A DNA stretch of 64,000 nt, taken from the NCBI RefSeq assembly GCF_001949145.1, contig NW_019091355.1, forward strand, positions 1,635,107-1,699,106, read 5' to 3'. A program made the position numbers and the translations under genes. Origin of the DNA: Acanthaster planci (taxonomy: Eukaryota). Below the pieces are notes generated by a model, which saw only the letters and a program-made list of their open reading frames with translations, did not search any database and was not told where the DNA came from. Shown one piece after another: positions 496-40,483 of the stretch (the first letter of the stretch is position 1; every line of letters starts with the position of its first letter).

Positions 496-2265
496 GTTCG
501 AATGCAGTTTGATTTTTCCCATTTATGTCCCTAACAGTAGAGGCAATCAGCAGTGACAAAAGGGAAATATATGTACCACAAGATGTTTTCGAGTGTGTAG
601 TTGTGTTGGAAAAATCAGTTTTGTTGTCACTATTTATCTCTCACTGATGATTCTTTTTTTATTGATGGTGTCCACATTTATTTTTGTGTATTGTTTCCTT
701 CTCAATTGAGTATTTGAGTTAAAAATTTCCGCATGTCAGGGCTGACATTGTTAGTACCAGTATTGAAGTACAAATTTAACTTCTGACTTTAATCTTCGCG
801 ATTGTAAATGTCATTGATATGTTTTTACGCCATGTCACCAGGAGCAATTCTGCAACCCAGGTGAATTATTGGAGTTTTTATGCTTAGAGTACTGTATTGT
901 TGACTCCATCCTCTTTAGTAACAATAACAGGTGCATTTTCTGGAGTCAATTTGGTGAAAATACTTAACAGCATTTACAATTTGTACACTGTGTACCATGC
1001 CCAGATATGAATGGCCTAAAGGGCTTTTAGAGAATGGCAATTTACCTGAGTAGCAGATTGTGTAATATATGTTTAACATTGTTGTTTATGAATGTACTAA
1101 ATGCCATTGAAATTTAATTTATAAAATCTCATGTTAGACCAAGATATTGAAAATTGGTATTTTGAATGGAAATGTGTATGAGAAAAATTGACCAAGAAAA
1201 CAAATGGAACTTATTTCATTAGCCGAAGACATGCAATGCTCAAGAACTGAGTCGTTACTGCGCCGATTCCTATTTTAAAATCCTGATGGCTAATGGAAAA
1301 TTGCAGCTCACAGAGGAATATAAAGATTGAATAGTTACTGATTAATGCACTTAATATTTTATTTCCATCAAGATCACTAAAATGTTTATCAAACATAATG
1401 TTTCTCACCAGGATATATTTAATCACAATTGATGGACACCACCAAAGAAAAAGAATATTGCTTTTTTTGTATCGAATCTTTTTCAAAAGTTACATTTACC
1501 TTGAAGAATCCTTACCAAATAGAGTTCCAAAGAGCACAAAGAGTTAAGACTGAATTTGTTGGAGAATGTGAACCACAGATAATTCATTTTTCTTTTTTGG
1601 TTGGGCAACATAGTTTGCAGGGATGGGATTGGCCACTTCAAATTAAAGCTAACAAGAATCACCCAAAAGCTGGAATTAATGTAAAAGGTTCCCATACTCA
1701 GTACAGAGCAGGAGTATAAAAAAGCGTCAAATCTAGGCCAACATCTGAAACCCCAAAAGTTTAAATCAGCTAAACAGCTTAATTTGTTTTTGGATTACCT
1801 TTGGTGTTAATCAAGGAAACTTTAACATTGTTGGGATGCCTTACAATTTGTACCGAGAAGCGAATATGTAAGTGAATACTGGTTCTTTACCAAGTTGATT
1901 TCTGAGTAACAATGAGATTAAAGAATTGTGACCAGGTTGATTAATGACTATCAGATTAAACTGCATTAATCTCATATAAATCTTGGTGTACTATCTCTCA
2001 TTTAAACACACTCAGTACAAACATTGGTTTCAAGCAATGTTAAGAAGGTACACTAAATATACCAAACTAACTATTTTTGTATTATGATGATACATGGAAC
2101 GATTTAATAAATTTCTAACCTGTTTACACAAATCAAATGTATTTAAATTGACTTAGTTGCCTGCATTTCTTTGTGCAGGCTCGCATCACTGTGATAAACG
2201 AACATTCCCCAACCTAGTTATATTGTCCAACTCGGCCACCTTTTCCATGCTATACTGAAAAAAGC

Positions 2266-19000: not shown

Positions 19001-22000
19001 CCAGCGACAACGATAACAATATGAAACTTGTTCAAAAGAGTTCTCAACGCTTTTCAATACCACCTTCTCGTACGTTTGCAAGTCCTCGGCAAGTGTGAAT
19101 AAATGGTGTACACAACGTCTTGGATTATAATTTACATCATTTTCCGAAAGAAAGGAATAACTATTACCGACATTGTGTGTTTGTTGACAAGAAGAACGAG
19201 TGTTTCCAGACTTCAGGCTGCGCTTAAAGCAATAGAAAATAGCTGCCACTTGTGTATGGGTAAAAGTCAATAGAGCTTGACTTGACCCCTCATCGCGCGC
19301 TTCCGCAACCCTTGGATAGGAATACTCACTTGCATTGATTTCACAAGTTTTGCTGTTTTTCTTTTTATTTAATTCCCAAAAAAATCCAACTCCGAAAAGG
19401 GAAACATCCTGCCGAAAATTGACCCATGCATCATTTCCAAAAATATAAAATTCACGAATAACAGTGGAATGCGGCAGTCTCGTACGCAGATGAACATTTA
19501 CAGTTTGAGATTTGATGGTAGTCGGGCGGTAAAAGCCGAACTATTTTACACAGTTTATAATTTATAAGTAATACACTTAAAGTGCACTTCATTTACGAAA
19601 GTTTTTTTTAATGTTACCTATGCTGAAAACTGCGTGATGCGGAATATGGAACCCATGGCCTGCAAGTAGGTAAATCTGACCAATGTTATACAATCTCATT
19701 TCACTAATATTAGCGTGAGAAATGAAAACAATAACGTACACGAACATTGTGAGACCGAGGTACGATATCGCCGGAAGTGAAAGGTGGTTATGAACTAAAC
19801 TTCGTTTTTAAGAATCCCATGTGATTTATCTTGTATATTGCTCGAGGGAGAAAAAGGTTAAAATTCCAACACGCGGTTTTCATGGGATGGTTTCAGAAAG
19901 GATTTATTTTTCCCAAATTATCAAAACGTGATAGGACGGCACAAGGTAAAATCGCCACAGGCAGACAGCGCAGGGTTCCAGAAGCTCGCAGCATGACCTT
20001 TTACTTTCAGTCTCTATAACGGGAAGGAAGCAGATGACGAGACAATGGCGGGGCAAGACGATATGCAAGTTTATATTTAAAGTTTATGCGTAAAGTATAA
20101 AGGTTAAGTTTATATGTAAAGTAAATTAATGGGTTCAATTTGAGTAAAAGCCAAGCGACAAGATATTTAACAATGCAAAATAAAATGAAATTAGATAGAT
20201 TACATTTGAATAAACACACACAAAAAACAAACAAACAAACAAACAAACAATGACCACATATCCTGGCCATTCGTCAAATGATATAACAGTTCTTTTAAGA
20301 TGGGCACTTGCACTGACATCTCATAGAAAAGAATTTGGTATGACATGATATCATACGGTTGAAGTAAAATCCAACACACGGATTTGGGTTCAAAATTTAT
20401 TCCAAAATAACTGCAGAAAAAGCGCCAGAGAAGGTTAATAACTACCCTTTACAATTTAAGGTAAAAGACGTAACAATTAAATGTGCCAGATTTGACGCTG
20501 GGGGATCAAATCAAGCAATAACAAAGACCAGAACATTAAATTTCCTGGGCGTGAAGAGAGTTTTCGTGATAAGAATTACTAACGAAAAATTATGGTGGTA
20601 CAAGAGGTTTTTTGTGGTTTTGAAAGTGATGGTGCGTAGCAAGCGCTGGCTGGGTGCTTTGTCAATGGACATTACAGGCATGCCAGAAAATGACGAGTGG
20701 CCAAATGTTACGGCCTTGGCGGTTCAAACTTCAAAACTGCGTCCTTCTCTGGATTGAGCATCCAGTTGGGGTCACTGTAATCTATCACATGTGACACTGT
20801 CGAGCACAAACGCAATGTTCTTAATATGAGGTATAATGAAATGTTATCAGTCAACAGATTTTCGACTAAGTCAAATGAAATGTTGCATCCAGCTTACCAC
20901 TTTTAAAGATTTTCTAAAACATGTCAAGTCCAAATGAACTAAGCAGTATACATACTTTATTTCACATTAACGAAAGCTATCACAATGAATACTAACAACC
21001 AAAAGCACCAAAAAACCCAGAAATCAAATACCATGGACAAAACTAGGGGACACATATTTCGTCTGTACACAAACGTCTACAGGAGTAAGTTTTATACACT
21101 GCGTTCGCATACAGAAAAGGTTAATTTGTATGTCGAACTATTGAAACATAAGTCCACACATGAATCATCTTTACTTGCGCCAAAAATTAACAAACATAAT
21201 AAATGATGAAAATAATCACACACTGTGCATGTTAAAACAAATACACATTGCCGCATGACTAGAAAACAACAGATATCAGTAGTAAAATTAAAATTCTACG
21301 CATACTGAGTGGTGCTTAATCAAATGTTCAACCCGATCCAGAAATGATTCATTTATACAAAAACCACTTCAGGCAAACACTACACATACAAAGTCATCTA
21401 CAAAATGTAATACAAAGGAATACAGGATACACGTACAGGATCGGGCAGCATGGATATACATGTAAACGAAAGTCAACATGGCAACCGTTGGTATCAATAA
21501 ACACTCCACGTCAACACCTAAACATCTAGCAAAAGCTGAGATGTAAGAAGTTCCCACACCTTTTGTATGCAGCACGCGTGCAACAATGCTGAAATCAAGG
21601 GCAAATATTTCCAGTAAAGAGCTAAATCAGCCAATGGCATGAAGTTTGAAATATCTAGGAAATACAACTGACCATACAAAAGTTTTGATTAGAAAGTGAT
21701 GCAGGCAGGTATTAAAATTAAATTTTATCGGATAACAATTGTGCCACTTAATATTACCACGTAACAGCAGTGCAGTAAATCGTTCCTTTCAATAACAACA
21801 CTTTGAAATGAAGGTCGAAAACGAGAGTTACGCAAACCAAATACTCGTATTTGTGGTGGAAGTTTCAAGAAAATCGGAAATTAAGCAATATATTCTTGTA
21901 AAGTAAGTTTCCCTAATTTATGTTACATTTGTTCTTTTGAGGTAAAAACAAAGTCAATCAACGACCAAGAACTCGAATCAAAGCGGCATGACCGAAATAC

Positions 22001-23097
22001 CCTGTTGACAAAAACCAGGCTTGTACAGTGTCAGGCCAGAGCTATAAATGTCATTTATCGGAAAACAGTGACAGCACAAAGGTCTAGATCAACCATCCCA
22101 AAAAAAAAAATTAAATAACTTTGACTATGCTTTTGGAAAATACATCTTTAGTTATCAGCACTCAAAGGGAGCACAACTGATTAACTGGAGCACTGTGCAA
22201 TTTACCCTTGGAACTAATTTTCCGAACAAACCTTCATGCAAGTTCAAGATGGAATCCCATCACCTAGCAGTATCCATGATATACATTTACCTTTGACAAT
22301 TGTTAATTCCCTGCAGATAGTCAATGTTCCTTCTGGTTTTCTCCATAAAATTATGCTGGATTTCAAGCTCAATTTTGGTCAGCTTTCAGGGGCAACACCA
22401 ACCCACTACCAACACTAACCAACACTAATAAAATGATTGGTAAGTCTGAACAAGTTATAAAAAAGTACAGGTTTCGTGTTTTTCAAGCAGCATGTTTGCT
22501 CAAAGACACACAATGTCACTTTCCAGTTTTGTTTGCACTTTAAAATTGCCAAATACCGTAGTTTGATTGGATTTGGCCCATTAATAAATAAATGATAACA
22601 GCAAGAATTAAAAGTGTATACATGCTGCAAGACAACTGCAAAATATTGGGTTGGGTTGAAAATTGCATCATTTTAAAAACACTCACTTATCAGTCGGCAA
22701 CCTTCTTTTACACGATTTAGTCTTGTCAATTTCAGTGAACAAAAGAGAGGCCAACATATACCTTAAATGTAAAAGGTAAAAGTGACGTAAAGAAGAAGCT
22801 GAAACACCACTGCATCGGGAACACCTTTTAAATCAAATGCCATTTTGATTACATTAGTCATGCTTGGTCAGAAATACTGAACCAGTGTTGTGAACAAGTA
22901 TGCAAAGCCACCACAGTATTACATTGTCAATATATACTTTCACCTGTTCCATGTACATAACAGGAGAAAGCTCGATTTTTAATTAATTGGAATATAACAC
23001 TTTCTGCATGTGAGCTCACTTTGTGGATAGAGGTTACATACAGTTACTTTTTACCACAATCCTAAATATTGAAAGTAGCATCAAGGACTGCTTCAAA

Positions 23098-26000
23098 CTA
23101 AGTAGTGCTGGTGCTCTTTACAACTGGAAGCAATGGGTCGTAACCGCTATTGTAACAATACTCAGTGTACTTGTTACGCCGAACCACCATTCTGTGCAAA
23201 TAAAACAAATGGTGTAATTTTGGCATGGCACACAATATTTTTTTATATCGTGACAGCCACACGAAAGTTTGCTCAGCACAAAGAGTATTGTCCGTCTCCA
23301 ACAGATGATCATCTGGGTTATACTTTGTTCTGCACAGCTTGTCGGTGTGGTTTCGTACATGTAACCTGTCTACACACTTGTGCAGATTCAACCACATGTG
23401 AGACCATGGCCACGCAAGTGGTAACGGTTTCCTAGCAACGTTCATGTTGTCCAAGTGGCACATATTATCGTACACTATGGACAAATTGGACCACGAAGTA
23501 AACGGCACCGTCCTCAAGAAAGGAAACAGCCAGGCTATGAGAATCAGGAAGACCTGTGAGGGTGACTCTGACCTGTAGACATACAATACATTTACAAAAA
23601 TACAAAGTAAAAAGGGGAGAATTATATGAAAATGCTTTTTTTTTGTTAATGAAATATGAAATCACGATATCGTTACATCTTGTTTACTTTCGGTGCCGAT
23701 TGAAATTGAAGAAAAAATCAAAGTAAATGGGAGCACAAATTATATGGACTCTTGGGCAGAAATTACAGATTTTGTCTGTATAAAACACAGCGCAAATGGC
23801 TTTTTATTTTTTTTGTAATTATTTCTGATTTAATACTTTACACATGTCAACATATTTTAAGATCATTACATGACAGTAATTTAAAATGACAACCTTTCCG
23901 CATCTAGCAATCTCCATAATTTTGCACACCATGGTTATTTACTTCAGAGGATAAAGTAGGTTAAACTCTGTCAAAGTTAATGACTTCAGGTCAAGGAACG
24001 AACTAAACGTTCACGACTGGCCTAGCAACAGTCCGGATCTCAACGCAATAAAAAATCTCAGAAAGGTTGAGAAAGAAAAGGTTGCAGAAAAACAGCCATC
24101 AAATACCAAGGCCTCAGTTTAAGCCATCAAACAGTCTGTTAGAAGGAAATAAGGGTGGACTACTGTCAGTCTCTCGTAACCAACATGCCATATAACATTC
24201 AGGAGGTAATCGCAGAAAATTGAGGGCACGTTAAACATTAGACTGTCCACACATATTGAGTTATTGACATGCGGTCAACAAGCAATTCAGGCAAGACAAA
24301 ATAATGAACATTTGAAATCGATGTCAATTCCAAACATTTATTTCAAAAAAGTTAGGTTTTTCCTCCGAGCTAATGCATTTTTTAATGGGCAGTCTTCAAC
24401 TGTTCATACTGTCTGGAATTCTTTTTACTTTAGCTGCACTTTTAAAAAAGGTGCACTAGATAACAGCTTAAAAAGAGGAGCATTATGAAGATTTAACAGA
24501 AAAGGATCAATGTCCAATGCCTATTTCAGATTAAATTTCAGAACATACTCACTTGTACAAAGTTTTCCAAAACTCAATATGGCCACCAGCACGAACAACA
24601 AATAAATGCCCCCTTGACCACTTCTGAAGTCGTTTCTTGCCTCCAACATCCTTCTTACAGGTCGATGGTATTTCTTCCACACATTCATTCAGCATGGTGG
24701 AAATGGAGTAGCTGTGTTCATTGAGGAAGGCTGTTGTTCCTATTGTCAATGTGGGTTGCGATAGTAAGAAGAGTAGTTCAGATCACAGGAATATAGGGTT
24801 ACATGAGGAGATGTTCAGACTCCTTTTGTATAGTGTGGTATTTTGAATGAATGACAATAATGTCTCCAACCTTGGTCTGTTTCATACTATCTATATGCAA
24901 AACAAGACATGGGATGTAGGGTAACCCCTACAAGTAACTAAAAATATTTTTCTCACATAAAGCCAATTGACGGGCAAAAGCAGCTCCAAAAATTGTCAAA
25001 GTCTATGGTAGCACATGCATATTCGAATGTGTATGCATGTTTCGATTGCCAATTGCATGTGCGTCACAAGAGTATGGAACTTAGACTCTGTTGATATCTA
25101 TTTAAGTTGTACCCCAAGTCACAATTCATATCAATGATAACAAGACAGACATTATAGACTATTGAGAATGAACACATGAACCTTGCCCTTTTTTCACATA
25201 ACACAAAATAATGAGATTCACATTGGATACTTTATGGAAAGCTTGGGTTTCGAAAGGTCAACCGTAATTTGTGGTTGTTTCACAGATAAACGAGAATTTT
25301 ATAATGTCTAGAATGTAATGTATGCTTGCATTTCCATACGTGTACATTTATCTAACAATATTCCAGGCACAGAATTTCTTTACATCTTTTCAACACAGTG
25401 GTTTGTTAAGGTAAAAACAACGCAATGTAGAATTTTTGGCAAGAATTATTCATTCATTTACAATATGATTGTACAGATTACGCATTGAAATTTCAAAGGA
25501 GACAATTCAGGTGTAGGCAGCAAGGGTAACTACTGAAAAATAAATGCCCCTGGTGCAGCATTTCTCACCTTGGGCATCCACTACAGATTCACCACAACAC
25601 GACACTGGCTGCAACTTGGACAGGACTCCACCAACTTTAGTGATTGTTTCTTCTGTTGAAAACAAGAACAAAAAATCAGCATAAATTTGCATATCATTCG
25701 GTAAATGTATCTTACACATTCAGATCAGTTTGTAATAATAACAAATATAATGGTTTAAAAATAAGGGAAAAAAAACTAAGAGGGTGGATGGCCTTAAGAT
25801 GTGCACAGGACAATGGGCACAAGTCACGTCAAACCAGGCTTACCCCATTCAAAGATTTATTCGCATTAGCACATGCCCTTTGAATCAAAACAGCTCAAAA
25901 TATGATGGAGTTCACTTAGAAATTTCAAGAATGTTATTGAACTACTCAAGCACTGAAACCCCTCGGCATAACTTGCAAACAGCAGCTTTTTGAAAATAGA

Positions 26001-29000
26001 CTAACTTTTTTATGGGGGGGGGCCTAATACCTTGCGAGTCTTGAGCAGTTTTTAACATGATTGCCATTTTGCTGCTGGCTTTTGAAATGTACATTATAGT
26101 GCCTCCATTGCTTCTTTATCAAATGGTACCAGGTCTGGCCAGTTCATGAAATTTTGTATTAACAACAGGAACAAGCGTAATTGTATAAACAGGTTACATT
26201 CAATTTTTCAATGACAATGTATGCAATACTGCAATTCAAGATTACACTTACAGAGATGACTACCCCACAAGGGAAAAAAGAAACTTTTTTTTTACCATGT
26301 TTGGATGTTCATTTTGGTCTAAAAACATCAGACACAAAAATTATTGAAAAAGGTTATAAACAAAAAGGGCTTTAATTTGGAACAGGTGCCTGTGGCCGTG
26401 ATTAACAATCTCCACATGGAATGACGAATGCACCGAACAATTTGCGTGGACCCAATGGTCTTTGTCATTCTACTGTAAATACAACATAATGATCAGAACA
26501 AGTCAGGGCCAAAACAAAATGGTTCCACCAAACAAACTGGCCAAATGGACTTACGATTGCAATTAGCATCACATGCAAGGACTAAGTTCGCAGCAGTATT
26601 GTCAAGAGGTGTTGATGGGTCTTCACTCGCAGTCAATGTTGATGCCCCGTCACATGCAGTCAGCATAGTTAAGCCTTCACTTGCAGTTGACGTTGATGGG
26701 CCTTCGTTCGCAGTTGATATGGATCTCCCTTCACTTGCAGTTACTGCCGATCTGCCTTCCCTCGTAGTTGATGTTGATGGGCCTTCGCTATCACGCAATG
26801 GCGTAGGGCCTCCAATGTCAGCAGCGGAAAGGCCTTCAACACAAAGATTACATCAATAACAAGTCCGTTTGAAATTCTTCTTTGAATAAATGCAAGTTAC
26901 GATGGAAACGTAAAGAAAGCATGAAAAAGGTATGATAGAAAAATTTAAAGGAAGTACATTTTGAACATACAAACTACAACTTGCTCAAACAATGCAGAAG
27001 AGAAAATAATAAGATGCAAAAAGAAAAACACACAAAAACACAAGGAATAAAAGGTCCCAATCGGCCAGCTATATAATCATGCAAACATGAAGAAAAAAAG
27101 AAGAGTATTGCGGCCCATGTGAAAGAACAGCCACAGTACAAAAAGAATTAATCTTTTCAGATTAAATGTACAGTGTTCTCCACAGCCTAAGATTAAAACT
27201 GGGCGACATATGATGTGAGCCCGGACCTTGAAACCATAACGGCATCTGGTGCCCGCCACAGGAAATTTTTTATTCTAATTGCTTTGTGGTGCAATCTGAG
27301 GTATTTCCTGGGCACCTTTTTTGGACTCCTTGAATCAGATTGGCTTATGTTGAAATGAAGGCAAGATTGTTATCAGTAGGTCATCAAAAGTTGATTTTAT
27401 TTTGCGGGGTATTTCTTTATTTACTCATCAGAACTTGCCATTGAGCGGATGGTTCGGGATTACATGTACGTACGTTTGCGCAACATGAATGGATCGTGCA
27501 TGGTCGCTTTCTAAAATCTGGGTATCAAAAATAACTCCATGGTCTGATTCCAGCCACAGAATCATTTCACTTCGGTGAAATGCAGTCAGTCATCAAGTTC
27601 AGTTTTGACTGTTTTTCAGCTGTACTGTGAGCAATCAGCATCTATCCCCCTGCCCTGCACAGTTGACAAACCCATTATGTCACATACATGTGCAATGTAC
27701 AATTCACAACTAGGAAAAATATGCAATGATTTTAAGCCAATTTACATTAAAAAGTCTCCAAAAATTATTTTGATTACTTCTTTTCTGCATTGTATATGTT
27801 TGCAGAAAAAAAAAGTGTACAAGAAGTTACACTTCACCAAAAATTGTTTGAGAATTTAGAACACATAAGAAGATGTTATCGAAGCAGAAAAAAGGAAGTT
27901 TTATTCAAAGCAATTCCAATCTATGAAAAAAAAATGGAAATGTGGAGATCAACTTCAGACTCATATCTGGGAAAACAATTTGGTAATAATCTGAAATGGG
28001 AAAGTCACATTTTGGATGTTACCACTAACTGTAGGAATCATTGGGCATTATCGGGAGAAACTTCAAAACCTGTCAAGTTGGTGTATAAACACAGTTATAC
28101 AAATCATTGATCCTGCCTAAACTTATGTATGGTTCTGCAGCCTGGTATCCAACAAAAAAGAATGAGAAACCCCGTCTTGACATGATCCAGAGATCGGCTA
28201 CTCATCTGTGTTTGGATGACTACTCTAGGGAAGGGAGTGTTACTGAAATGCAGCACCGACTGGACTGGCCAAACCTTGAAGTTAACTGGAGGGTCGTTAG
28301 ATTATCTCTGATGTATCAAATTAGCCCCAACTTATTTGATATAAAGTGGGAACATCACCTGTGTAAACCCTCTAGAAGCACCAGAGGACACCATTGCTTA
28401 TCATTTATACAAATAACAGCAAAATCAACTACTTATGTGAACAGCCTTTTTCCATGAACAATCCCTCACTGGAATACCTTGCCACACAATATTTTGGACA
28501 TAGATATGTATGACTCCTTCAAATCTGCACTAACAGATCATTTTCAGTAATTTCATAGCCCAGCCAGCACCAGGTCTTTAGGTCATCTCTGATGAGAAGC
28601 GGATACCTGTTTCAACAGATTCACAAATCCTGATCCACAACTTTGATCACTAGTGGTGCCAAGTGCTTTTCTGTTGTGTTGAATAATGATGGCAAACTCA
28701 TCCTGTTCGTTTCATAAAGTGCGATAAACTTTCTTTGGGTTTGCATAAGTAGTGCAGATGGTGGAGAAATCCAATAGAAGAAATAGCAGGCCGGTGAGAA
28801 TTTAAGCGGGGCGGCACAAGTTTGGTGGGGCAGTCTAAAGTTTTGCCAGGGTGGCCCGCCCTGCTAGAACAATGACTGTAAATTTTCATTTTATTTATCA
28901 AGCAAAATGTTCTACATAACAATAGATGCAGGCATAGACAGGAGCACACAAAAATAATAGTATTCACAGTGATTAAGCTTTAACCCTTGGAGGGATTTAC

Positions 29001-32000
29001 GTTTTACTCCTATCAAAATGACAAGTACATGTAAACTCGACAAACAGGCAAACAGAAAATCAACCAAGTATGGATGAATGCAAGAGGACAAAAGGAAAGG
29101 TCAAGAAAGCTGCAGGCTGGATAAAGGGGAAAAGGATCAAGGGGACTGGTTGAATAACAAAGGAATGTAAGCAGGGAAGAGATCAAAGAAAAAATACAAT
29201 GGATGGAACTGGACTGCAGACAAAAAAGAAGGGAAATAAAAGAGTGTTAATTAGTAGGTTCATTCTTGGATGCTCAGGCCATGGGGTTGTACAGTATGGT
29301 GCAGAGGTATTCATTCAGAGCTTCTCCCAGGTGACAAACAGGCAAACAGAAAATCAACCAAGTATGAAGGAATGCAAGAGGACAAAAGGAAAGGTCAAGA
29401 AAGCTGCAGGCTGGATAAAGGGGCAAAGGATTTGTGACCTGTCACCACAAAATGAGCTAACTTCACACATACGAGATATTGGTAATTTTTGAATTTAGCA
29501 GAAATTGAGCTTTCCAATGGCATGTACATGGAACACTTAGGGTAGAAGTACAAGGTGACAATGTGACATTATTCTGGCAGGTTTGCATCTTTGTTCCCGA
29601 CATTGTTTCAACATTTCAGACCAGGAACAGATAGTGCTATCGTCAAAATTGCTAAGGAAATGACAATTTGCAATATGTTATTCTGCAAAATATTTGAAAA
29701 TAAATAGGAAGTGGTTTACTCTTTCCAAAAATTAACAAACCAAAACATTGACCTCTAACTTCAATATGACTCTGAACCCTCAAAACAGGAAAGAGTGGGA
29801 TGCTACTTTACTCTCATTTTGTCGTGACAGGTCACATATTTGACATCAGAAGAGCTACAAGTGATGGTACCTCTGGTTCAGTGGGTGGTAACGCAGGAGT
29901 GTCAACAGAAATGTATCTGATTCCAGGACATGGTTCTGGCAAACAGCACATCTGTTAAAATCCAAGCTCAAGGTGCCATGCTGGGATGGGGAAGGGTAGG
30001 GGGGGGGGACTCTGGCCGGGTGAAAAGGTCAGATGGCTTGCAGGGTCGCCTTTAGAAGTTTTGTATTACAAAAACCCCTGGACACAATTAAGCATGACAC
30101 TCTCCTCATTAATCCTCAGCCAAACCCATTACTCCTCAGCCTAACTATGGAATGCCCTACCATGGCATATACAGAGTGAGCAAAGCCACACCATTGTAAC
30201 ATGTACAGTTAAAACTTAACTTTGTAATATTGCATTTGTCCAGTGACATATTAAACTGCAAGATTCAGGATTTTATTAATTTTAACTAGTAGGGTTATTA
30301 AAATTTTTTAGTTTTTATCTTAACGTAGGTTCAGCTGTGATTCGTTATTTTAGTGTCACTGTGTCTGGTATAATTACTTTTCTTTTATCGTAGGTAAGGA
30401 GCAGGCCAAACAAAACAATGTTCGAGGAAGTTTCTGTTTCTTTGGATAATTGATTTGGTTTAAGCAGTTCACATGTTTATAGAATAGAAGGTCAAATCGA
30501 AATGTTCCTAGGATGGCTATTAGATTTCATTTGAAAGCAGTCTTTTAGGAAAGTGCATCTAACGTAAGGTTACCATACTTTGGAGAACATTGGTTTTTGT
30601 AAGCTAATGCACTGTAGTGAGGTTTTGAGGAATTTAGGATATGGGAGTTCCTCCTTTTTTGTATAGCCTTAGATTGAAAGTGCCTGAAGTCATACGAACC
30701 GATTTAACCTTTCCATGTTATCCTTGTATATCTTAGTCATGAGTTTTGGGTATATGTGTACACTTTTGTATTCTTCTATTGCCATGTGGTTGAACATGTA
30801 TCTTGGATAAGACAGTTTTCTTTGTTCACCCTTCCTATGCCTCAACACATGGTTGGAGCAATTTCAGTTTATGACTAGGGATTAGGATTAGTGTTGCCTG
30901 CCTTCCAAGAAGTGGCCAAGTCCTTTGTTAATTGCATCATGATTATTCATGAGTTAAACCTGACTTCTTGTATATACATGTAAGCCCCATGCTTAAGTTG
31001 GGATAAGGATGAAGCCTTCACATGTACATGTACTAGCCTTGTATAATGCACTGAATAGTTCTTTGTTGTAGCATTCATTTATAAGTTTTCCATATTTATT
31101 CTGGTTGTTGAAGTTTGATCGTAATTGATTTGTGCCTTTTCTTGATACTGTGTTTGGTTTTGGTTTGTTTTTTGGGGGGGTCGTTATTTTCTCAATACCC
31201 GTTTCTGTTTTTTTAGTACTGCTGATATTTATTGAGAGTATTTTACTAAAAGGTTAAGGTTTACTGGGTCTAAAAGTTGACTTTCTAGGTCTCAAGTTTA
31301 CGGTCTGAGGTATTTTCACTAATTTGGGTTTTTTTGCTTTTCTTTGACTTTTCATTTTTGTTACTTTTTTATCGGCTAAGAAGTTACTTAATAGATTGTA
31401 GATTAGTTTTTTTCTAGATTGGCTCTTGTTTGTTGAATCAAATATTTTTTTCTTTTGACTATTTTTGAGATCAAACACTTTTTCCGTCCTGTCGTATTTT
31501 TCTTAAAAATACCTCACGATTTCTCCTTAGTTGATCCCTAGTTAGGTATTATTTTGTGCAAGCGATTTCCCCCCAGAGTTGTCTTCTTCCAGTGTTCCTT
31601 TTTTTCAAGTTACATTTTTAAAAAATCATTTTCGGTACAGGTACGTGATCATCTACTTGTCAATGTACATGTACGTGTACTAGCAAGTCACTATCAAACC
31701 TTTTAAAATCCAAAATGGCTCTATTTCGGATTTGAGGTGATACAGCATGGAAAGCTCTTTGCAGGACATGTCTAGGATGAGTTCCTCTTAGTAACAAACC
31801 TGACTAAATCAAGCATACTTTGACCAGACCAACTGGAAAGAACCTACAGTACATGTAGCAAAAAATGCTGTTACGTGTTATGGGTGCTGGGTTGTTAGGG
31901 CTGATATACATAGCAGCAACTGAGACACTCAATAGAAAAAACAAATGGTTTTTCTGGAGTATTTAACAATATTCAAAAATTGTATATGCACTGCAAAGAA

Positions 32001-35000
32001 ACTAATGTACAGTTCTAAACCTGGTATTTACAGTTACATACCATGCATAGGCTTAACCTCTTCAAAATAGTAACTTTTACCTGTGGAATCGGTATGAGCA
32101 TCATCTCCTTTGACTCCACAGTACTTCAGAAAGTCAGCCAGACCAGTTGGAATGCTCGACTGTTTCGCAACTTCGCAGTGCTCTGTGCAAAATGCCTGGC
32201 CATATAATGGGGATTTGGTACAGACATCTGGTAGGCTGGGGACTGGGATGCCAGACACTTTATTCTAGAGAGTGGAATGGACAAAATAAGAAAAATTAAT
32301 CAGGAAATGTTTAATAAATTAATTTAAAAAATGCAGTTAAATGAAATCAAACAAGTTACTAAGCAAAATAAATATGGCTGGGTAACTCAGTTGGTAGAGC
32401 ACTGGTATGGTATTCCACAGGGCACAGGTTCAAGTCCCCCCCCCAGTCAATTTCTTTGTTCATCTTTGTAATCATTCATAAGCACCTAGTCAGCTTCCCT
32501 GTATGATTTGTTTCAAATAAATATAAAAAAAGACCTCATAAACAGTACACTGAGAGAATGCAGAGAGCTTGCCTGAAACACAGAGAATGGACAAATTCTG
32601 AAAGGAAACAACTACATGAATGCAAACCTGAATGATCATAATATTCAGAAATTTTCATCCAACTTAAACAATAAATGGCCATAAAAAGTCTAATAAAGCA
32701 CTGAGCACACTCTCACTAAAAAGGAACGATTTACTGTCAAAAAAAGGAAACAATAAAGTGGATGAATATGGTCATGGTCAAGTTTTTTCATGGCATTCAT
32801 TGAACACTACATTCAAAGATCTATTTACAGAACTATGACCATATAGGAAAAAGCAATTTTATAATGTAGATAAATAATGCATCTTCTTCATTCTTAATGT
32901 GAAGTCCTTTTGCGAGAGGTATTAAATACAATTATGTCTCACTGGTAAGCATTCTTTAAAATGTAATATATAGGTTCTAGTAACACTGAACATAAAAAGT
33001 GAAACTGTTTCAATTTACACTCATACCTCACATCGATGCATACAATGCGGAAAACTCAGTTTCCAGATGCCATCTGCCACAAAGACACGGCCGCAACCTA
33101 TTTCAAATGATTGCAATGATTTCAAAGTATTCATTCTACAAGAAAAAACGACAATAGCAAGCGTACAATTGAGTTGAATGATAATGATCACCTCTATTCA
33201 CCCAAAGGATATTTACACATACGAACATCACATTTGCTTTGCTACAAAAAGGAAAAGAGGCATATAGAACCCCTTAAAAACATGCCTTAACAATTACAAT
33301 GCGGTTTCAGTTCTCAAATGAAATTCCAAAACAAGAGTTGTTCCTCAGGGGTTTTAAAAAGTCGAAGGTGGTATCTTACATAAAGGGAAACCAAAAAACA
33401 TTAGCAAAAAATGTTATAAAGGTAACATAACATAAGCTAAATGCATGCAATTAAATGCAAACACTTCTGCTGCAAAAAATTTAAAAGACAAGTAACTAAC
33501 CTTTCGCTTCACATTTGGGATGGCAGTTGGTATGATCATAAATCGTCTGCCGACGAATACTTTCAATCCGCTCCAAGAGTTTTTCTCGGTCTCCATCTGT
33601 CTTGAGCAAACCAAACATATCAAGTCGTCTGCGTTCACGTAGTTCATTGTGCAGCTCTCCATGAAAGAATGCTGAGGAAACCTGTTTACTGGAGATCCCT
33701 AAAACAAACACAAACCCAAGGGTGTGATTTCATAGTAATTAAATATGAAAATTGTGTGCGAACACACCTGTCACAGTAACATTTAGGTACTGCAGGCCTG
33801 GGTCAGGGTGGTTACATAAACATCCATTGGTTCATTGACTTCAGGGGTGTCACACAAAAGAGGAAAAAACAGTATCTACATTTACCACACAAACTTGTCT
33901 GTGGGGGATAGAATGCACTGTTACGAAATCATACAATAATTTGGTTTCTGATGCCATCCACAAACACATAATATACTTATTCTTTGCTACATATATGACA
34001 CATTTGATGGAGTGATGGTTTCATTAACAGTGTACTTCCAAGATGATAGAGTAAGGTCAGCTTTAATTTGCACTTTTTATAAATGATGTCCGAAAGTTGA
34101 ACGGATGTAACGCTGCATTTGGGATGATAAACGAAATGATTTTTCAGATTTTTAGAAGTTTTTGATTTGTTAAAAAGCTTGAGTTTTATTATTTACAACA
34201 TAACTATTAATATTTATGATAAGGTTAGGGCAACACATGCTAAGCAGCAAAAAGCGGAAGTTGAATACTACAATGTACTATGCAACATTTCAGTACAAGT
34301 ACATGTTGGCCTGAGTCAGAGATTGTTGCAAGCCAGTTAAAGATCATGTGATGTAAGCTAAACATACGCATTTCGAATGCGAAAATGCAATTAATTGATA
34401 ACCGCCTTTTCCCAAGATACTCCTGAACTTAAAAACAATGCGTTCAGCTATAAATATAGCCGCCTGCCTCTATCCAAAAAAGCCCCCAATTTGGGGTTTT
34501 TGGCGAAAGCCCCAAAATGGAAACTTTCAGTCCCTCCTGATTAGGACATGTGTAACTGTACAAACCATGTGAGCTCACACAATAGGTCCTTATCAATTAA
34601 AACTGCTGTCATTAATTTAAGGACCCTGAGCTGATGAAAATTAGAAAAAATTGATAGCAATGAATTTAAAACTACTGACAACAGATTAAGTTTATGACAG
34701 AGAAAGACGACAATAATGGCAAATAATCTGTGCACGAATCTTAAATTTCTTTCACAGGAATTGATAGGAGTACACATACCTTCACTTCTTGATAGGCCAA
34801 ATGCAGTGTTGAAGGACTCAGCAAAGCCTACGAAACTGACCCAAGAATGATTCCTGAGGAAAAAAGACAATACAACCAGTAGACTCCAATATAGAAAAAA
34901 AAGAATTTAAATTGATGAACAAAATTTTAAACTGTAGAAAATCAGTGCAGGTGCTAACTCGTCCAATGAATCATATGTCAATGGAAACTTTTGTCAGCAT

Positions 35001-37701
35001 AAAAACAAGAAAGTGGCAAGTAAATTACGAAACATTATGTGGAATCATAGCACAGGTTGGACACCTTCTACATTGCATTACGACTATAACGCCCAGGGTA
35101 TAAATGCAAAAGTGTTATTACACATTTTTGTCTCAAAATGTCATTTGGGAGTGCTACCAATGACTGTTTCACGGTGGCAAAAAAGAAAGGCGCTTACTTG
35201 CTGCAAGTGAGTTTTATGGACAGTTGTGATTTGGGGGAGGGGGCGGTACCTGAGCACTGTATTTGTTTCTGGGAGGGCCATGTTTCACCCATAGAGTTAT
35301 TGCAGATTCAAAATCAAAGTCTGCGCATTTCAAAGGAGCAAGCAGCGAAATGTTTCAAGTGTCATGCATGTGTCAGCAAAAACGGTCAGATTTGGACACG
35401 TAACATGTATGTCACAAAAGATATTGAAGTGCCAAAAGTTTGCCGGCCATTTAAAACAGACATTAGGTGGGGAAAAAAGGGGTTTTGGGTGAGTTTGGGA
35501 ATTTTTGAGAACCATTTTCACTGAACTGTATGGTGGTTCATTAGCACCCTGTTCCTATAGGCCCAAATGAGGAAACATAGTCCACTTTCTCAAACTAACT
35601 TACATTTTGACCTTAAGGAACCATTACTCAATCCTGATAGGCCTAGTTTAGGTAAATGTTGACAAGATCTAAGCAAGAAAACTTCGAATTTCTGACAAGA
35701 GTTTGGCAAAAGACAACCACTCATTCAAATGAAGCCATTTTGTTTTTCGTCTGGTTACCCTATTCTGGCTTTTTACATTCATCAGAAACAATCCCGACCC
35801 AGGTCAAGGAACCACACTGTATCTGCTTATTTGTCATTCACAACTCTATTTGGGGCAGTCATTTACGCTGCTGTTTAACCAAAAACCAAAAGCCCTGTCC
35901 TCTTTCTGATATGAAAGAGGACATCACCAAAAACTTTTTTTGATAAGTTATTTCAAAAAAGTAGAATTTGTTCCCTTATAATCCAGTTCATAAGTGTGAC
36001 GTCACTTCAGTTTAAATCACACCCACTGCACATGAACTGATCATACAGTTACATGTATTGATCGTCATTTACTGGAACCGTGCAACCACAAGTTAACCCA
36101 CAACAACATCGACCACCCATTAAGAATCTGTTAAGTGTGGCGTGTTTTCCTTTGTGACAAATTTACTTACAAAACGGATAGGAACTGAGTGCTAAAGGTA
36201 ATGAACCCCACTATAGGCCTACATGTACTGTTGTGTAGCATTACTAGCTGCATGTATGACCGATCCCATCCAAGAGGAATAGGTTACTCATGCTCCACTT
36301 TTGTCATGTCAGTTGAGTCCATGATTTGGAAGAGTGGCATAAGTGAACATAGTGAACCGACTTTATCCTTCCACAGCAACATAAAATAATTACCATGGCT
36401 GTTGTTACCGCAGCCGTAACGCATCTCCCATTTTCTATCGTTACGGCACTGCAACTGCGCAAGCACGCCAACTTAGCACAGATTTTGGACTTTATTTCCC
36501 TTTAAAAAAATCCTCCAAAGCCTCCAATGAAAAAAGAAAAAAGATTCCTGCTTAGGCCTATACAATTAAAAAACAACGTAAAAAAAATAGGGATATGGTA
36601 TAAAACATTAAATTTAGGCAAAAAAAACACAAATGAAATGGTCCAAGTGCGGATTCCAACTCACACACCAGTGGTTCCCAATCTTCTACCTTGACCATAT
36701 ATCGACAGGAATATAATACCTTGTGAGTATGCTACTTCTGAACTGAATCTGCTTGCCCTGAAGAAGGTTCTTAGTTAACTGAAAGCTCAACAATCACAGA
36801 TTTTCGAGCACTGTTTGGATAATCCTGTCCATATTCTGATCTCGGAGCTACGCAGCCCTCCCATATTCCATCTTGACCACGAGAATTCGGGGATCCAGGT
36901 AATTTTAAAATATATGAACCGTCGTGATGATCAGCTACGTCATCGCACTTGCACAAGTTCAGTGTCGTATTAACAGAAAATGAGAAATGCGTTATGACTG
37001 CTGCAACAATAGCCACTTCTTATAATAATTATTCAAAGCAAACATAAGTAGCATACTCACGCAAGGCTGACCTGCAGTTCAAACAAGTCGCGTTGAAAAT
37101 ACACAACATTACTGGCCTCTATGAAGGGTTGAACCTTTTCATACAGATGAAACGATCTGGAGCTACTGCCATAACAGTCGTATCTATATGTCAGACTACA
37201 ATTGCGGCAGCGTAAGTTCGACTTCAGCCCTTTGAAGCACCCCTGCAAAGTCACGACTTTCACCTTCACCGGCTGATTGTGTGGCTTCAATTCAAGTCCA
37301 CATTCAAGGCAGGTTGAGTAGGGTGGAACCAAGAAGAAGTTGGGCCCCGTTGCTGAGCTGGCACTGGTAGTGGTATGATCACTTGCGGTAGATCTCAGTT
37401 GCCCCAATAAGAGTTTAATCAGTTTGACGTCTACTTCCAGCGTTGAAGCCAAAATGCAAGGGTCATATAGCGTGGAAATACTACTGACTTCGATGGCTCT
37501 GACTACTCGGCTCACTTCCTCAAATCCAAATTTAGACACTGCAAGTCCAAACTGCTCGTTTGGCGACAGCAGACGAACAGCATGTGAGGAAAGGTCCAGA
37601 TTGGACAAAGCGTCCTTGTACTGCTGCACTGCCCTGTCCTCTTCTTCAAGTTTGCCCACAAAAGAACCCAAATCAAACTTTGCTATTTTCTTTTTGGGCA
37701 T
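23098..37701 (-). CDS. 9-exon KDZ-family (Kyakuja/Dileera/Zisupton) transposase-like protein with CxC5-like N-terminal and CxC6-like inserted Cys clusters, about 730 aa, uninterrupted frame
   Basis: Exons 37701-37061, 34853-34780, 33698-33501, 33097-33027, 32264-32081, 26833-26555, 25652-25569, 24739-24553, 23572-23098 (2193 nt, phases consistent). CxC5-like region PPYSTCLEC...LRCRNCSLTYRYDCY...FIEASNVVYF. Core motifs VADGIWK, CTKSP...FCTEH, SESPSQV, YDNMCHL, VDRLHVRNH...C, NTLCAEQTFVWL. Additional small exons in the 5.2 kb intron (26834-32080) cannot be excluded. Confidence 0.85.
23990..24241 (+). mobile_element. Tc1/mariner transposase C-terminal relic in the last intron of the KDZ gene
   Basis: Translates as DWPSNSPDLNAIKNL...LVTNMPYNIQEVIAEN*GHVKH*, matching Tc1 WPxxSPDLNPIENxW...MPxR...VIxxKGGxTKY; has stops and a frameshift. 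Confidence 0.8.
27955..28550 (+). mobile_element. 5'-truncated non-LTR retrotransposon (CR1/L2-group) ORF2 3' end, frameshifted
   Basis: YLG..NLKWESHI; LILPKLMYGSAAWYP..LDMIQRSA; LDWPNLE..RLSLMYQI; TRGH; YVNSLFP*TIPHWNTLP. This is the canonical post-RT C-terminal segment of these LINEs. Confidence 0.85.
29040..29430 (+). repeat. About 95-bp direct duplication (29040-29135 and 29335-29430)
   Basis: acaaacaggcaaacagaaaatcaaccaagtatg...aggtcaagaaagctgcaggctggataaagggg occurs twice, nearly identically. Confidence 0.9.
29430..29839. mobile_element. MITE of about 410 bp with about 27-bp TIRs
   Basis: Left atttgtgacctgtcaccacaaaatgag; right ctcattttgtcgtgacaggtcacatat (near-perfect reverse complement). 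Confidence 0.75.
32376..32515 (+). mobile_element. tRNA-derived SINE, family A copy 2
   Basis: taactcagttggtagagc...ggttcaagtcc...ccagtcaatttctttgttcatct; clearly homologous to 392-495. Confidence 0.7.
36740..36868 (+). mobile_element. Further copy of the same Penelope-like hammerhead repeat, in KDZ gene intron 1
   Basis: gaactgaatctgcttgccCTGAAGAaggttcttagttaactGAAAgctcaacaa...atattctgatctcggagctacgcagccct, homologous to 46642-46772. Confidence 0.7.
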
Positions 37702-37940
37702 GGTATTGATTCATCATAAATACAACTGTTTCAAACGCAAAAAGACAAAGATAAGCAGAATACCCAACGAGAAATGTAAGTCGAAAAGCAATGATATGAA
37801 AAATCTAAACACGTGCGTGCGATGGCTAGAAGAAAAGGGAACGTAAAGGGAGGGAACGCGCATGCGTGGGGTTTGTAGCAGGTAGCGATGCTACAAACTA
37901 CCAGCCCTGATTTCTTTCGTCCCATTTCGTGCATCAATTG

Positions 37941-38700
37941 NNNNNNNNNNNNNNNNNNNNNNNNNNNNNNNNNNNNNNNNNNNNNNNNNNNNNNNNNNNN
38001 NNNNNNNNNNNNNNNNNNNNNNNNNNNNNNNNNNNNNNNNNNNNNNNNNNNNNNNNNNNNNNNNNNNNNNNNNNNNNNNNNNNNNNNNNNNNNNNNNNNN
38101 NNNNNNNNNNNNNNNNNNNNNNNNNNNNNNNNNNNNNNNNNNNNNNNNNNNNNNNNNNNNNNNNNNNNNNNNNNNNNNNNNNNNNNNNNNNNNNNNNNNN
38201 NNNNNNNNNNNNNNNNNNNNNNNNNNNNNNNNNNNNNNNNNNNNNNNNNNNNNNNNNNNNNNNNNNNNNNNNNNNNNNNNNNNNNNNNNNNNNNNNNNNN
38301 NNNNNNNNNNNNNNNNNNNNNNNNNNNNNNNNNNNNNNNNNNNNNNNNNNNNNNNNNNNNNNNNNNNNNNNNNNNNNNNNNNNNNNNNNNNNNNNNNNNN
38401 NNNNNNNNNNNNNNNNNNNNNNNNNNNNNNNNNNNNNNNNNNNNNNNNNNNNNNNNNNNNNNNNNNNNNNNNNNNNNNNNNNNNNNNNNNNNNNNNNNNN
38501 NNNNNNNNNNNNNNNNNNNNNNNNNNNNNNNNNNNNNNNNNNNNNNNNNNNNNNNNNNNNNNNNNNNNNNNNNNNNNNNNNNNNNNNNNNNNNNNNNNNN
38601 NNNNNNNNNNNNNNNNNNNNNNNNNNNNNNNNNNNNNNNNNNNNNNNNNNNNNNNNNNNNNNNNNNNNNNNNNNNNNNNNNNNNNNNNNNNNNNNNNNNN
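37941..38700. other. Assembly gap
   Basis: Run of N. Confidence 1.
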
Positions 38701-39021
38701 TGTATACATATTTCATTGCAACACATCAACACGAGGAAAAGCTGACATGCCAGACGTGATCAACAGGAGAGATGTTTTTCCTCGAGTTTTAAGACGTGAT
38801 TTATATGTAACGTGACGTAAAATGACAGAGTCTAGAGAGGGATCCTCAAATAAGGTGTGACTGTCAGTGACTGTGAATAATATGTAGCCATTTTTCTTTT
38901 TTTTTCTCGTGTCTTGTCCGGCTTGTGATTGTCTGAATTTGTGGCCTAGACACGCGTGACATGTACTAGGCCTAGTCTGGTACTTCCCAGTCGTTTGAGT
39001 AGGCCTAGGCCTTTTCTGTTT

Positions 39022-39952
39022 ACCTTACTGCACTCCACCTTTTTCATGGTTCCGCATGCTATAGCATTTTGAAAGTTGCCCAGTTGGAGTAGGCCTAGGC
39101 CTACCAGATAACACCTCCGTTTGTGCTTTCTGAAGTAAATCTTCCACTAAACACTAGTGGAACTGGCTACCCATGGTACCAGCATGACCAGGCATGATTG
39201 TATTTTGTGGCGTTTAAACTATATTATTGGCCCAAAATGAGGGTTTTTTGACCATCCTTAGGCCTACCTCTCATCCCATAACGATCCGCACCCATCTGCA
39301 TTCTCCGTGGCGGTGCGTCACGTGACACAAACTGGCACAGCATATTTACATAAAGAACGTTTAGGCCTATTGCTTTGGATATCAGTCCCCATAATTCCAA
39401 CTACTCTCGCTAAGATTATGTATAGAGATGTCTGGGAAATCTGTTTTCACGGAACCACACTATTCACATACATGCATATTGGCTCGATCATTTTGCAAGG
39501 GGGGGGCAGCGATGTCAGAGTGCGCGATACATGCTGCGTTGTCAAGCTAGCTGTTTACAGATTTCCCAGACGTCTCTATTCATTGGCCTAATCTTAGCGG
39601 GAGTAGTCACAATTATCGGGACTGGTATCCAAAGCAACATAAATTTTCATTGCACGAACACATTGTGCCTGTCTTTGTCAAGTGACGTACGGCCCCGGAG
39701 AATGCAGATATGCACAGATCGTTGAGGAACAAGAGGTAAAGATGGTAGGAAAAACCTCAGTTTTGCCATATAGAATATAGATTAAACGCTACAAAATATA
39801 ATCATGTAATCAGTTCCATATGGATTAGCTATTATTATCAGCTTTTTAGGGGAAGATTTGCTTCAGAAAGTGCAAATGGAGGCTTCATCTGGTACTCCAA
39901 CCGGGCAACTTTCAAAATGCCGGAAACATCAAAAAGGTGGGGTGCAGTAAGG
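39022..39952. mobile_element. About 930-bp inverted-repeat-bounded element upstream of ZCCHC7
   Basis: ccttactgcactccacctttttcatggttcc...gcattttgaaagttgcccagttggagta (39022-39090) is the near reverse complement of tactccaaccgggcaactttcaaaatgc...aaaaaggtggggtgcagtaagg (39893-39952). Confidence 0.65.
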
Positions 39953-40483
39953 TCTACGGAATAGTACCTTACTGTTCAGGAAGTAATCTGGGTCATTCAT
40001 CATGTTCGTTGTCAAGATCATTTGAAACATCAAACAGTCGTAAGTTGAACATGTTGACAAAAGTTCCAGAATCATCATGACTGTCATGACTCACTTCAAG
40101 TTCTAAAACTGTAAGGTACAACTTGCGCACAGGTCATGCCTGACAGTTCTGGAAGTAGTTATGACCATAATGACTGCAATGTCTATCACTTATCAGTATC
40201 AACTACATTTCAATAAATTCAATTGTGCACTAAACCGTGACCATGCGAACCTGTAAATTGAGCCTAACATGCTTACGACAAAGAGTTTTAGTCTGTCCAG
40301 GAGCGGTTTCCCCCTACATGGATTTCCCCTGTACAAAACTACTAACTCAATGTCTTTAGGCCTACATTGTTTTGTAAAAATTTGCTAATCCAAATACATG
40401 TACATGTACAAGCAAGGTTGGTTATTTCCTTTTCAATTCAGTGGCAGTAACTGTAAGTTGAAATTCACCGATCTCAGCCAAAG

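Follow-up and report, generated by a model that had tools for sequence, protein, structure and literature searches.

Zisupton, a transposon of the KDZ group known from animals, carries SWIM, SAP and protease as further domains. It is multi-exonic, and homologues in sea stars, lancelets and mussels have already been reported (PMC9297572); in the fungus Pleurotus, a CxC5/CxC6 fragment disrupted MSH4 (PMC7641404). Here we analyse 64,000 nucleotides of the starfish Acanthaster planci (contig NW_019091355.1, positions 1,635,107 to 1,699,106 of the forward strand; hereafter the window, whose own numbering is used throughout), which hold an intact KDZ transposase gene and, on the same strand, a gene for a helicase-like ATPase with a PHD finger. 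On balance, we lean towards reading the locus as a single resident copy of a giant two-gene KDZ transposon that is long-lived and measures at least 35 kb, composed of the intact transposase and the downstream ATPase-PHD gene. Animal KDZ transposases with an intact, multi-exon gene are already known in kind; the two-gene architecture, in which both genes have ancient introns, appears to be a new form of the giant KDZ elements with accessory genes. No KDZ element with a helicase-like ATPase-PHD gene is described in the literature examined, which did not extend to the supplements of two studies (PMC12730594, PMC12477816), to Repbase or to subscription papers.

An initial annotation had proposed an intact, multi-intron CxC5/CxC6-type KDZ transposase in an animal genome. 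As a CxC5/KDZ-type gene, this is borne out by the gene model, the RNA joints, Pfam, the predicted fold and the Atlas. The gene comprises nine minus-strand exons (37701-23098; 2193 nt, 730 amino acids) with GT-AG borders in 8/8 introns, and its 730 codons, the number claimed, contain no internal stop, the single stop standing at the end. The protein is a 100% match to the product of LOC110985613 (XP_022102484; RefSeq, Acanthaster planci), so the gene is annotated, yet uncharacterised. RNA joints confirm all eight introns in run X14 (3-9 reads each), five of eight in X11, four of eight in X15 and five of eight in the X1 contigs, at low depth on the coding exons (about 0-3 per bin, with about 11 million read records per run). 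This is an intact, spliced and weakly expressed gene for a predicted transposase. RNA depth rises at 21000-23000, past the stop codon, and 20956 is the sole canonical poly(A) signal on the minus strand within 20800-23098; together they suggest a 2.1-kb 3' untranslated region (UTR). The features of the gene are as follows.

37061-37701, minus strand: exon 1, with the start codon, the helical N-terminus and most of the CxC5 zinc cluster (residues 122-232); RNA joint
34780-34853, minus strand: exon 2, with the end of CxC5; RNA joint
33501-33698, minus strand: exon 3, helical region with conserved H294, C297 and C301; RNA joint
33027-33097, minus strand: exon 4, with the predicted first catalytic aspartate D313 (33074-33072); RNA joint
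32081-32264, minus strand: exon 5, with a Cys/His insert (C343, C354, H357), possibly CxC6-like, without a CxC6 profile match; RNA joint
26555-26833, minus strand: exon 6, a low-complexity linker that consists of 27-nt tandem repeats and is predicted to be disordered; RNA joint
25569-25652, minus strand: exon 7; RNA joint
24553-24739, minus strand: exon 8, with RNase H strands in the model; RNA joint
23098-23572, minus strand: coding part of exon 9, with predicted catalytic D608 (23469-23467) and E673 (23274-23272), DRLH..NH and the stop; RNA joint
20940-23097, minus strand: likely 2.1-kb 3' UTR, from RNA depth and poly(A) signal; the libraries look unstranded

Further candidate exons at 37000-36720, 29951-29871, 26472-26296 and about 26134-26031 were rejected, as they hold stops or are in the wrong phase and are skipped by the RNA joints. 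Within exon 6, the 27-nt tandem units (26610-26800) contain all three amino-acid-changing variants among those listed. In the likely 3' UTR, RNA reads and the X7/X8 contigs carry an A-rich run in place of the 103 bases at 22763-22865, an indel allele.

The five motifs claimed for the protein are all present (DGIWK at residue 313, SES at 574, YDNMCH at 607, DRLHVRNH at 641 and NTLCAEQ at 668). Of the profiles that the annotation had named as a check, CxC5 (PF18718) matches residues 122-232 with 54.9 bits against a cut-off of 26.9; no other Pfam domain is found on the protein at E<=0.1, and neither the KDZ nor the CxC6 profile matches the protein itself. Among 145 aligned family members, 39 match the KDZ domain (PF18758) and 29 match CxC5 (E<=0.01). 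The former include the Patiria protein P0005, which is 49% identical to the window protein, and the aligned part of row 2 of the Atlas structure search is named PF18758. CxC6 (PF18721) matches 0/145 members at E<=0.01, which leaves this label putative; the protein does have a conserved C323/C343/C354/H357 insert, and its top Atlas cluster is CxC5/CxC6. The profile search returned 3720 representatives at E<=0.001 and 225 at 1e-30, and the top Atlas clusters are fungal CxC5/CxC6 and rotifer CxC5/KDZ ones. Animals with a named relative include a sponge, a coral, molluscs, amphioxus, a tardigrade and members of four echinoderm lineages, so that the type is no rarity among them.

A structure model built on the 145-row alignment has a predicted local distance difference test score (pLDDT) of 82 and a predicted template modelling (TM) score of 0.79, with only the exon-6 linker disordered; it supersedes a first fold from 11 rows (pLDDT 57.7, no Foldseek match). 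In VIA-align, transposases, integrases or RAG-like proteins fill the top 34 rows, led by ISCth4 (Z 9.3, root-mean-square deviation (rmsd) 3.9, 210 aligned) and including foamy-virus integrase (Z 9.1, rmsd 3.1, 131 aligned), IstA (Z 8.2) and Tn5 (Z 8.1), with IstA, MuA and TnsB within Z 7.5-8.2; these values barely exceed the usual background of 7-8, and the list is uniformly one of DDE enzymes. No solved structure close to the transposase was found with Foldseek or VIA-align. In the alignment, D313 is kept in 49/53 covering rows (92%), D608 in 105/112 (94%) and E673 in 117/122 (96%). The model places D313 on a strand, D608 just past a strand and E673 on a helix, which is the usual RNase H arrangement. 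The model thus shows an RNase H-fold core with a D313/D608/E673 triad, whose catalytic role is predicted.

The second gene, at about 13266-2265 on the same minus strand and some 10 kb downstream, was absent from the initial annotation, and it is the more notable feature of the locus. Its exons were traced 5' to 13266, with the Walker A motif split by an intron and Walker B near 10200.

7654-13266, minus strand: ATPase part (exons 13266-13099, 11464-11166, 10812-10723, 10316-10043, 9624-9351, 8574-8377 and 7954-7654)
8380-8382, minus strand: premature in-frame stop in this assembly
3475-6329, minus strand: five short acidic exons, of which four are duplicates that include flanking intron sequence
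2265-2560, minus strand: last two exons, with the PHD finger (named on paralogues) and the stop; the 3475-to-2560 join needs one further small exon

All modelled splice sites of the partner are canonical, and a single lesion is visible in about 2.2 kb of coding exons; its 5' start and the small exon ahead of the PHD part were not found in the window. Over 499 residues, its identity to A. planci LOC110985028, which lies on another scaffold, is 63%; identity to a Patiria protein is 46%, and no RefSeq protein identical to its ATPase exon was returned. Walker A (GxxxxGKT) and Walker B (hhhDD) are invariant in 4/4 and 5/5 aligned rows, respectively. The PHD finger, recognised on paralogues, is the one domain that Pfam names, and the DUF927 profile has no match at E<=1 to the paralogue P0182, to P0181 or to the ATPase exons. 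The Atlas places the first 510 residues of P0182 with bacterial and phage DUF927/primase-helicase clusters (score 0.97, TM 0.61-0.67), below the bar for a family name. A PDB sequence search with the partner returned only PHD fingers and low-complexity matches, no relative was found in viral contigs, and PHROGs gave rows only at E>0.3. We predict a P-loop ATPase resembling the DUF927/primase-helicases, with acidic repeats and a PHD finger, and do not place it as a DUF927 member. The acidic exons at 3405-5829 are one exon repeated in tandem together with its splice sites; the repeat linkers that relatives carry at this place are unrelated.

The pairing of the two genes recurs in relatives. A scan of metagenome contigs returned 39 KDZ loci (L numbers), and 27 flanks of related loci were examined, of which 10 have at least 1.9 kb of 3' flank. 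A partner lies on the opposite strand in seven of these 10, seen as the ATPase in L011 and L037 and as the PHD-type end in L001, L005, L014, L015 and L020; none was found in L022, L030 and L039 within the flank present. As L014/L015 and L030/L039 are near-identical pairs, merging leaves six of eight loci paired. The P-loop gene of L011 and L037 stands tail-to-tail with the KDZ gene and matches the window at 10819-10042 (E 5e-16 and 3e-16 between the window partner and the two ATPases), and the partner shares four intron positions and phases with L011. Four of the six downstream exons of L011/L037 align to the window partner above all 200 shuffles, and two fail. In Patiria, a KDZ protein (XP_038066277) and an ATPase-PHD protein (XP_038066289) have accession numbers 12 apart and come from scaffolds that are both 21,754,841 long, suggesting adjacency. 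From these comparisons of sequence, it is likely that the transposase gene and the ATPase-PHD gene together make up a single giant element.

The introns of the transposase gene are likewise shared. Those of the pair L002 (spliced) and L007 (genomic), at residues 305 (phase 1), 329 (phase 0), 511 (phase 1) and 573 (phase 2), coincide with window positions, with one extra in the linker, and L011 adds matching introns at residues 214 (phase 2) and 239 (phase 1), read off its translation, so that six of the eight window introns are common to L007/L011 in position and phase. Among 29 loci with the SESPSQ motif, the residue-573 intron is present in 23 and absent from six that run through, three of which match genomic loci as spliced forms. 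A protein from an L002-sized contig groups with a protein of the coral Oculina (100/100 in the tree). Because six of eight are shared with such distant relatives, the introns predate this insertion. Judged by these shared positions and phases, old introns are a property of the transposon family rather than gains after settling, and give no pointer to domestication. The initial annotation had taken old introns with a clean frame as a sign of purifying selection, in an active lineage or after domestication. It had also listed Tc1, LINE, SINE, MITE and Penelope relics within the introns; the Tc1-, SINE- and MITE-like ones were recovered, and the other two have no Pfam match.

23955-24119, plus strand: Tc1-like relic in intron 8 (Pfam DDE_3, E 3e-4, below the cut-off)
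32372-32500, plus strand: tRNA-headed repeat like a short interspersed element (SINE) in intron 4; second copy at 389-454 (77%); high contig depth
29430-29839, no strand assigned: high-copy repeat like a miniature inverted-repeat transposable element (MITE) in intron 5, with 27-nt arms; high contig depth
28089-28457, plus strand: relic in intron 5, by its motif like a long interspersed element (LINE); no Pfam match
about 30300-30900, minus strand: relic in intron 5, by its motif possibly Penelope-like; no Pfam match

Such nested relics are no proof of immobility, because the giant KDZ elements of the alga Ectocarpus keep moving despite nested insertions (PMC12477816). Two observations concern intron 1. 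A perfect 14-nt inverted repeat (36723-36736 and 37047-37060), one arm of which is the donor site, flanks a high-copy repeat related to 46540-46773; an origin of the intron from a MITE was rejected, since L011 has the same intron. A stretch of about 2 kb of this intron (34932-36955) is missing from contigs of X7 (at roughly half the depth) and X8, possibly an allele without the repeat block, with a short side of only 30 letters.

There are signs, from sequence comparison, of mobility in the lineage. Three KDZ genes were found in A. planci, each on a scaffold of its own, with local alignments at 46-65% identity. In the tree, two Patiria genes form the sister group of the window protein (100/100); they share one scaffold and agree at 676/676 residues. 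The host gene next to the transposase in the window, ZCCHC7-like, has its Patiria counterpart on a scaffold of 23,093,800, and the four Patiria KDZ proteins found lie on scaffolds of 12,237,465 (two genes), 46,651,055 and 21,754,841; among these four there is no orthologue at the ZCCHC7-adjacent site, for one species and one neighbour, and a copy may be missed. The element likely spans at least 35 kb; its far end may lie outside the window, and an assembly gap lies at the 5' side.

37941-38700, no strand: assembly gap of 760 bases, 240 bases upstream of the KDZ start codon; may hide an element end

Contig depth of X7/X8 at 37321-37940, the exon 1 bin, is 2-3.6 times that of the other exons, which may point to a short repeat or to an end of the element close to the promoter. 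Two sets of loci (L019, L020, L021, L023, L024 and L032; L008, L009, L010 and L012) come from different records and keep 95-99.8% identity across both gene and flank; in these relatives, too, the gene looks like a single fixed locus with an open frame. Contig X8:11 (20258-26022), considered as a shared insertion site, was dropped, as its flank is probably inside the element.

Several results weigh against a two-gene transposon. The window genes stand in tandem, about 7.7 kb apart on one strand, whereas the related loci are tail-to-tail. Joint action of the two proteins is hypothetical. The partner ATPase has no Pfam match outside the PHD finger, and Foldseek gave no match to the transposase model at E<=0.001 (best Mos1, E 0.008). 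No terminal inverted repeats (TIRs) or target-site duplications (TSDs) were found above shuffled controls around the transposase gene or both genes, in scans that did not include TIR-less 7-bp CA..TG ends. Around the transposase gene there were two 8-bp duplications against a shuffled mean of 1.95 and twelve 7-bp ones against 8.6 (maximum 15), and around both genes nine imperfect inverted repeats (best 16/20), where 10 shuffles gave 2-8 (best 15-17). No terminal motif was seen in the 3' flanks of L013, L016, L028 and L030. Described KDZ elements have 8-bp duplications in Zisupton and Dileera and 7-bp ones in Kyakuja, with CA..TG and no TIR (PMC12730594). There is no near-identical second KDZ copy in A. 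planci, as judged from cluster size and contig depth rather than the whole genome: the 90% cluster has one member, and contig depth is flat over nine bins at 21096-26936 (X7 191-256, X8 79-104, in a stretch without a host-gene baseline), with repeat-bearing bins reaching thousands. The copy-number check proposed earlier thus has a partial answer, a single copy by these two measures. The Patiria twins may be an assembly duplicate. Finally, the excess of silent variants described next fits host-level selection at this locus.

Six of the nine coding variants listed are silent (4/4 in exon 9, 2/5 in the linker), where 23-30% would be expected neutrally (P 0.006-0.026 for 6/9 and 0.002-0.007 for 4/4); this excess rests on 9 sites, from variants among 40 of 105 and 40 of 549 rows. 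Compared with its Patiria sister, the window protein is 79-83% identical in the catalytic segments and 45% at the N-terminus. With assumed rates, an unselected frame is calculated to survive 2% divergence only rarely. The purifying selection put forward in the initial annotation is modestly supported by the silent variants and segment identities.

Domestication would have the transposase immobile and kept for a starfish function, such as a DNA-binding or rearranging nuclease, with the partner decaying. The single copy (by cluster size and depth), the spliced transcripts in three raw RNA runs and one contig set, the silent excess in listed variants (strongest in exon 9), the better conservation of catalytic segments, the one-to-one sister relation in the tree (100/100), the head-to-head position with the host gene ZCCHC7-like and the rarity with which an unselected frame would last (on assumed rates) are all compatible with it. 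We nevertheless think it unlikely, given that ZCCHC7 shares no scaffold with a KDZ gene in Patiria, that Patiria has identical twin genes, that the introns are family features, that the partner still adjoins the transposase nearly intact, and that the silent excess comes from nine sites only. The opposite proposal, that the element is fully autonomous and active at present and the partner stop a private allele or an assembly error, we regard as improbable. It can draw on the one lesion in about 2.2 kb of partner exons with canonical splice sites, on transposase expression and on the Patiria twins, but no second copy and no ends were found, no RefSeq protein identical to the ATPase exon of the partner was returned, and the possible indel alleles in intron 1 and the UTR suggest that the copy has long stayed at one site.

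That the two genes are unrelated, a one-gene KDZ element beside an ATPase-PHD gene that landed independently or belongs to another element, appears highly improbable. The orientation unlike that of related loci, the long spacer, the three of 10 related loci without a partner in the flank present, and the lack of a KDZ neighbour, among the proteins found, for the second ATPase-PHD gene of A. planci (on a 2.18-Mb scaffold) would fit it. Against it, related loci show this pairing again, as Patiria apparently does; because both genes are rare (three KDZ and two ATPase-PHD copies found), chance adjacency within 10 kb is very unlikely. A resident copy of a two-gene transposon remains our preferred reading, and this copy has likely begun to lose autonomy through the partner stop. 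With the partner broken in this assembly, the copy would need a paralogue in trans, and the intact, 63%-identical LOC110985028 could act in this way.

For such a transposon, we propose a speculative mechanism. The CxC5 zinc cluster and N-terminal helices of the transposase are predicted to bind the element ends, and the RNase H core (D313/D608/E673) to cut them and join them to target DNA by two-metal DDE chemistry. The partner would form a ring ATPase that, by analogy, might load or license the transposase on target DNA, or unwind a transposition intermediate; TnsC, MuB and IstB are analogues for ATPase loading of a transposase on target DNA. The PHD finger may read a histone mark and bias targeting towards that chromatin mark, and the family would persist at low copy number by slow copying, introns included. 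Alternatively, Cch, the MCM-like helicase of SCCmec, holds DUF927 (PMC7581432), and by this likeness the partner might unwind or replicate the element.

Several other features lie in the window. A ZCCHC7-like gene (40457-48300, plus strand; RefSeq LOC110985490) is head-to-head with the transposase gene, with about 2.8 kb between the coding starts and the assembly gap inside; it contains a 39-nt tandem array (42560-42781) and a degenerate short-unit array (47185-47444). Between the two genes lies a palindromic element of about 950 bases (39011-39964) with nested inverted arms 77-96% complementary, likely a foldback element or MITE. Between the KDZ and partner genes, a 185-codon open frame (18986-19540, minus strand), partly over a repeat, has no Pfam match. 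Two pieces at 20675-20729 and 62137-62191 are 75% identical, with a translation that resembles a kinase subdomain; the open frame at 20368-20754 has no Pfam match. A gene at 55735-61288 (minus strand), with PH/PTB-like exons and long low-complexity exons, has no Pfam match on the four open frames scanned, and we take it to be DOK-like. Rfam and ARAGORN found nothing.

The locus supplies an RNA-verified, full-length and confidently modelled KDZ enzyme with a predicted triad, open to expression and assay; we know of no biochemistry for KDZ enzymes. To our knowledge, an ATPase of its own is rare among known eukaryotic cut-and-paste transposons. That the pair and the introns have been kept between starfish and coral-like relatives suggests a lasting function, in target choice or in element replication, which would, if true, amount to a mechanism not seen before. 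It is, in addition, a test case for the persistence of giant, intron-rich transposons at a single copy and for the point at which such elements turn into host genes. A bolder reading, which we consider possible but rather doubtful, is that it represents an undescribed ancient animal lineage joining a KDZ DDE transposase to a phage-type ring helicase fused to a PHD finger, as a counterpart of Tn7/Mu or a self-replicating transposon, with this locus possibly en route to RAG-style domestication.

Tn7 (TnsB/TnsC), Mu (A/B) and IS21 (IstA/IstB) combine a DDE transposase with an ATPase, and RAG2 has an acidic linker and a PHD finger. With these systems and RAG1/RAG2 the window pair invites a two-protein analogy, and the transposase model has IstA, MuA and TnsB among its fold matches (Z 7.5-8.2); the likeness of the partner to TnsC, MuB, IstB and RAG2 is one of analogy only. 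By Atlas features (0.97), TM (0.61-0.67) and Walker A/B, the paralogue P0182 resembles DUF927/Cch and phage primase-helicases, from which the partner differs in being eukaryotic, intron-rich and fused to acidic repeats and a PHD finger, with no DUF927 Pfam match and no primase domain seen. Like Zisupton of fish, nematodes and other animals, the window gene is a multi-exon, gene-like KDZ-group transposase. However, it falls outside strict Zisupton criteria, with 730 amino acids and only CxC5 in Pfam (E<=0.1), against up to 1400 amino acids and CxC7 (PMC9297572, PMC12062965). Zisupton also has TIRs and an 8-bp duplication, neither found at the window, and a helicase-like partner is unmentioned in the portions of the Zisupton literature examined.

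The fungal CxC5/CxC6 KDZ genes (Pleurotus open frames of 660-739 amino acids; an Atlas Basidiomycota cluster) agree with the window gene in size and CxC5 (Atlas feature 0.95, TM 0.60-0.65), but have 44-60 copies, against a single copy, no CxC6 profile match and a partner gene here. Giant KDZ elements with accessory genes (fungal TET/JBP Kyakuja, Dileera and Zisupton; Ectocarpus, up to 30.3 kb) share with the window locus their very large size, a second gene and nested relics (PMC12730594, PMC12477816). In the main text on the Ectocarpus elements (PMC12477816), neither 'ATPase' nor 'PHD' occurs. Unlike the accessory genes of the other giant KDZ elements, that of the window encodes a helicase-like ATPase with a PHD finger and has introns conserved between distant animals.

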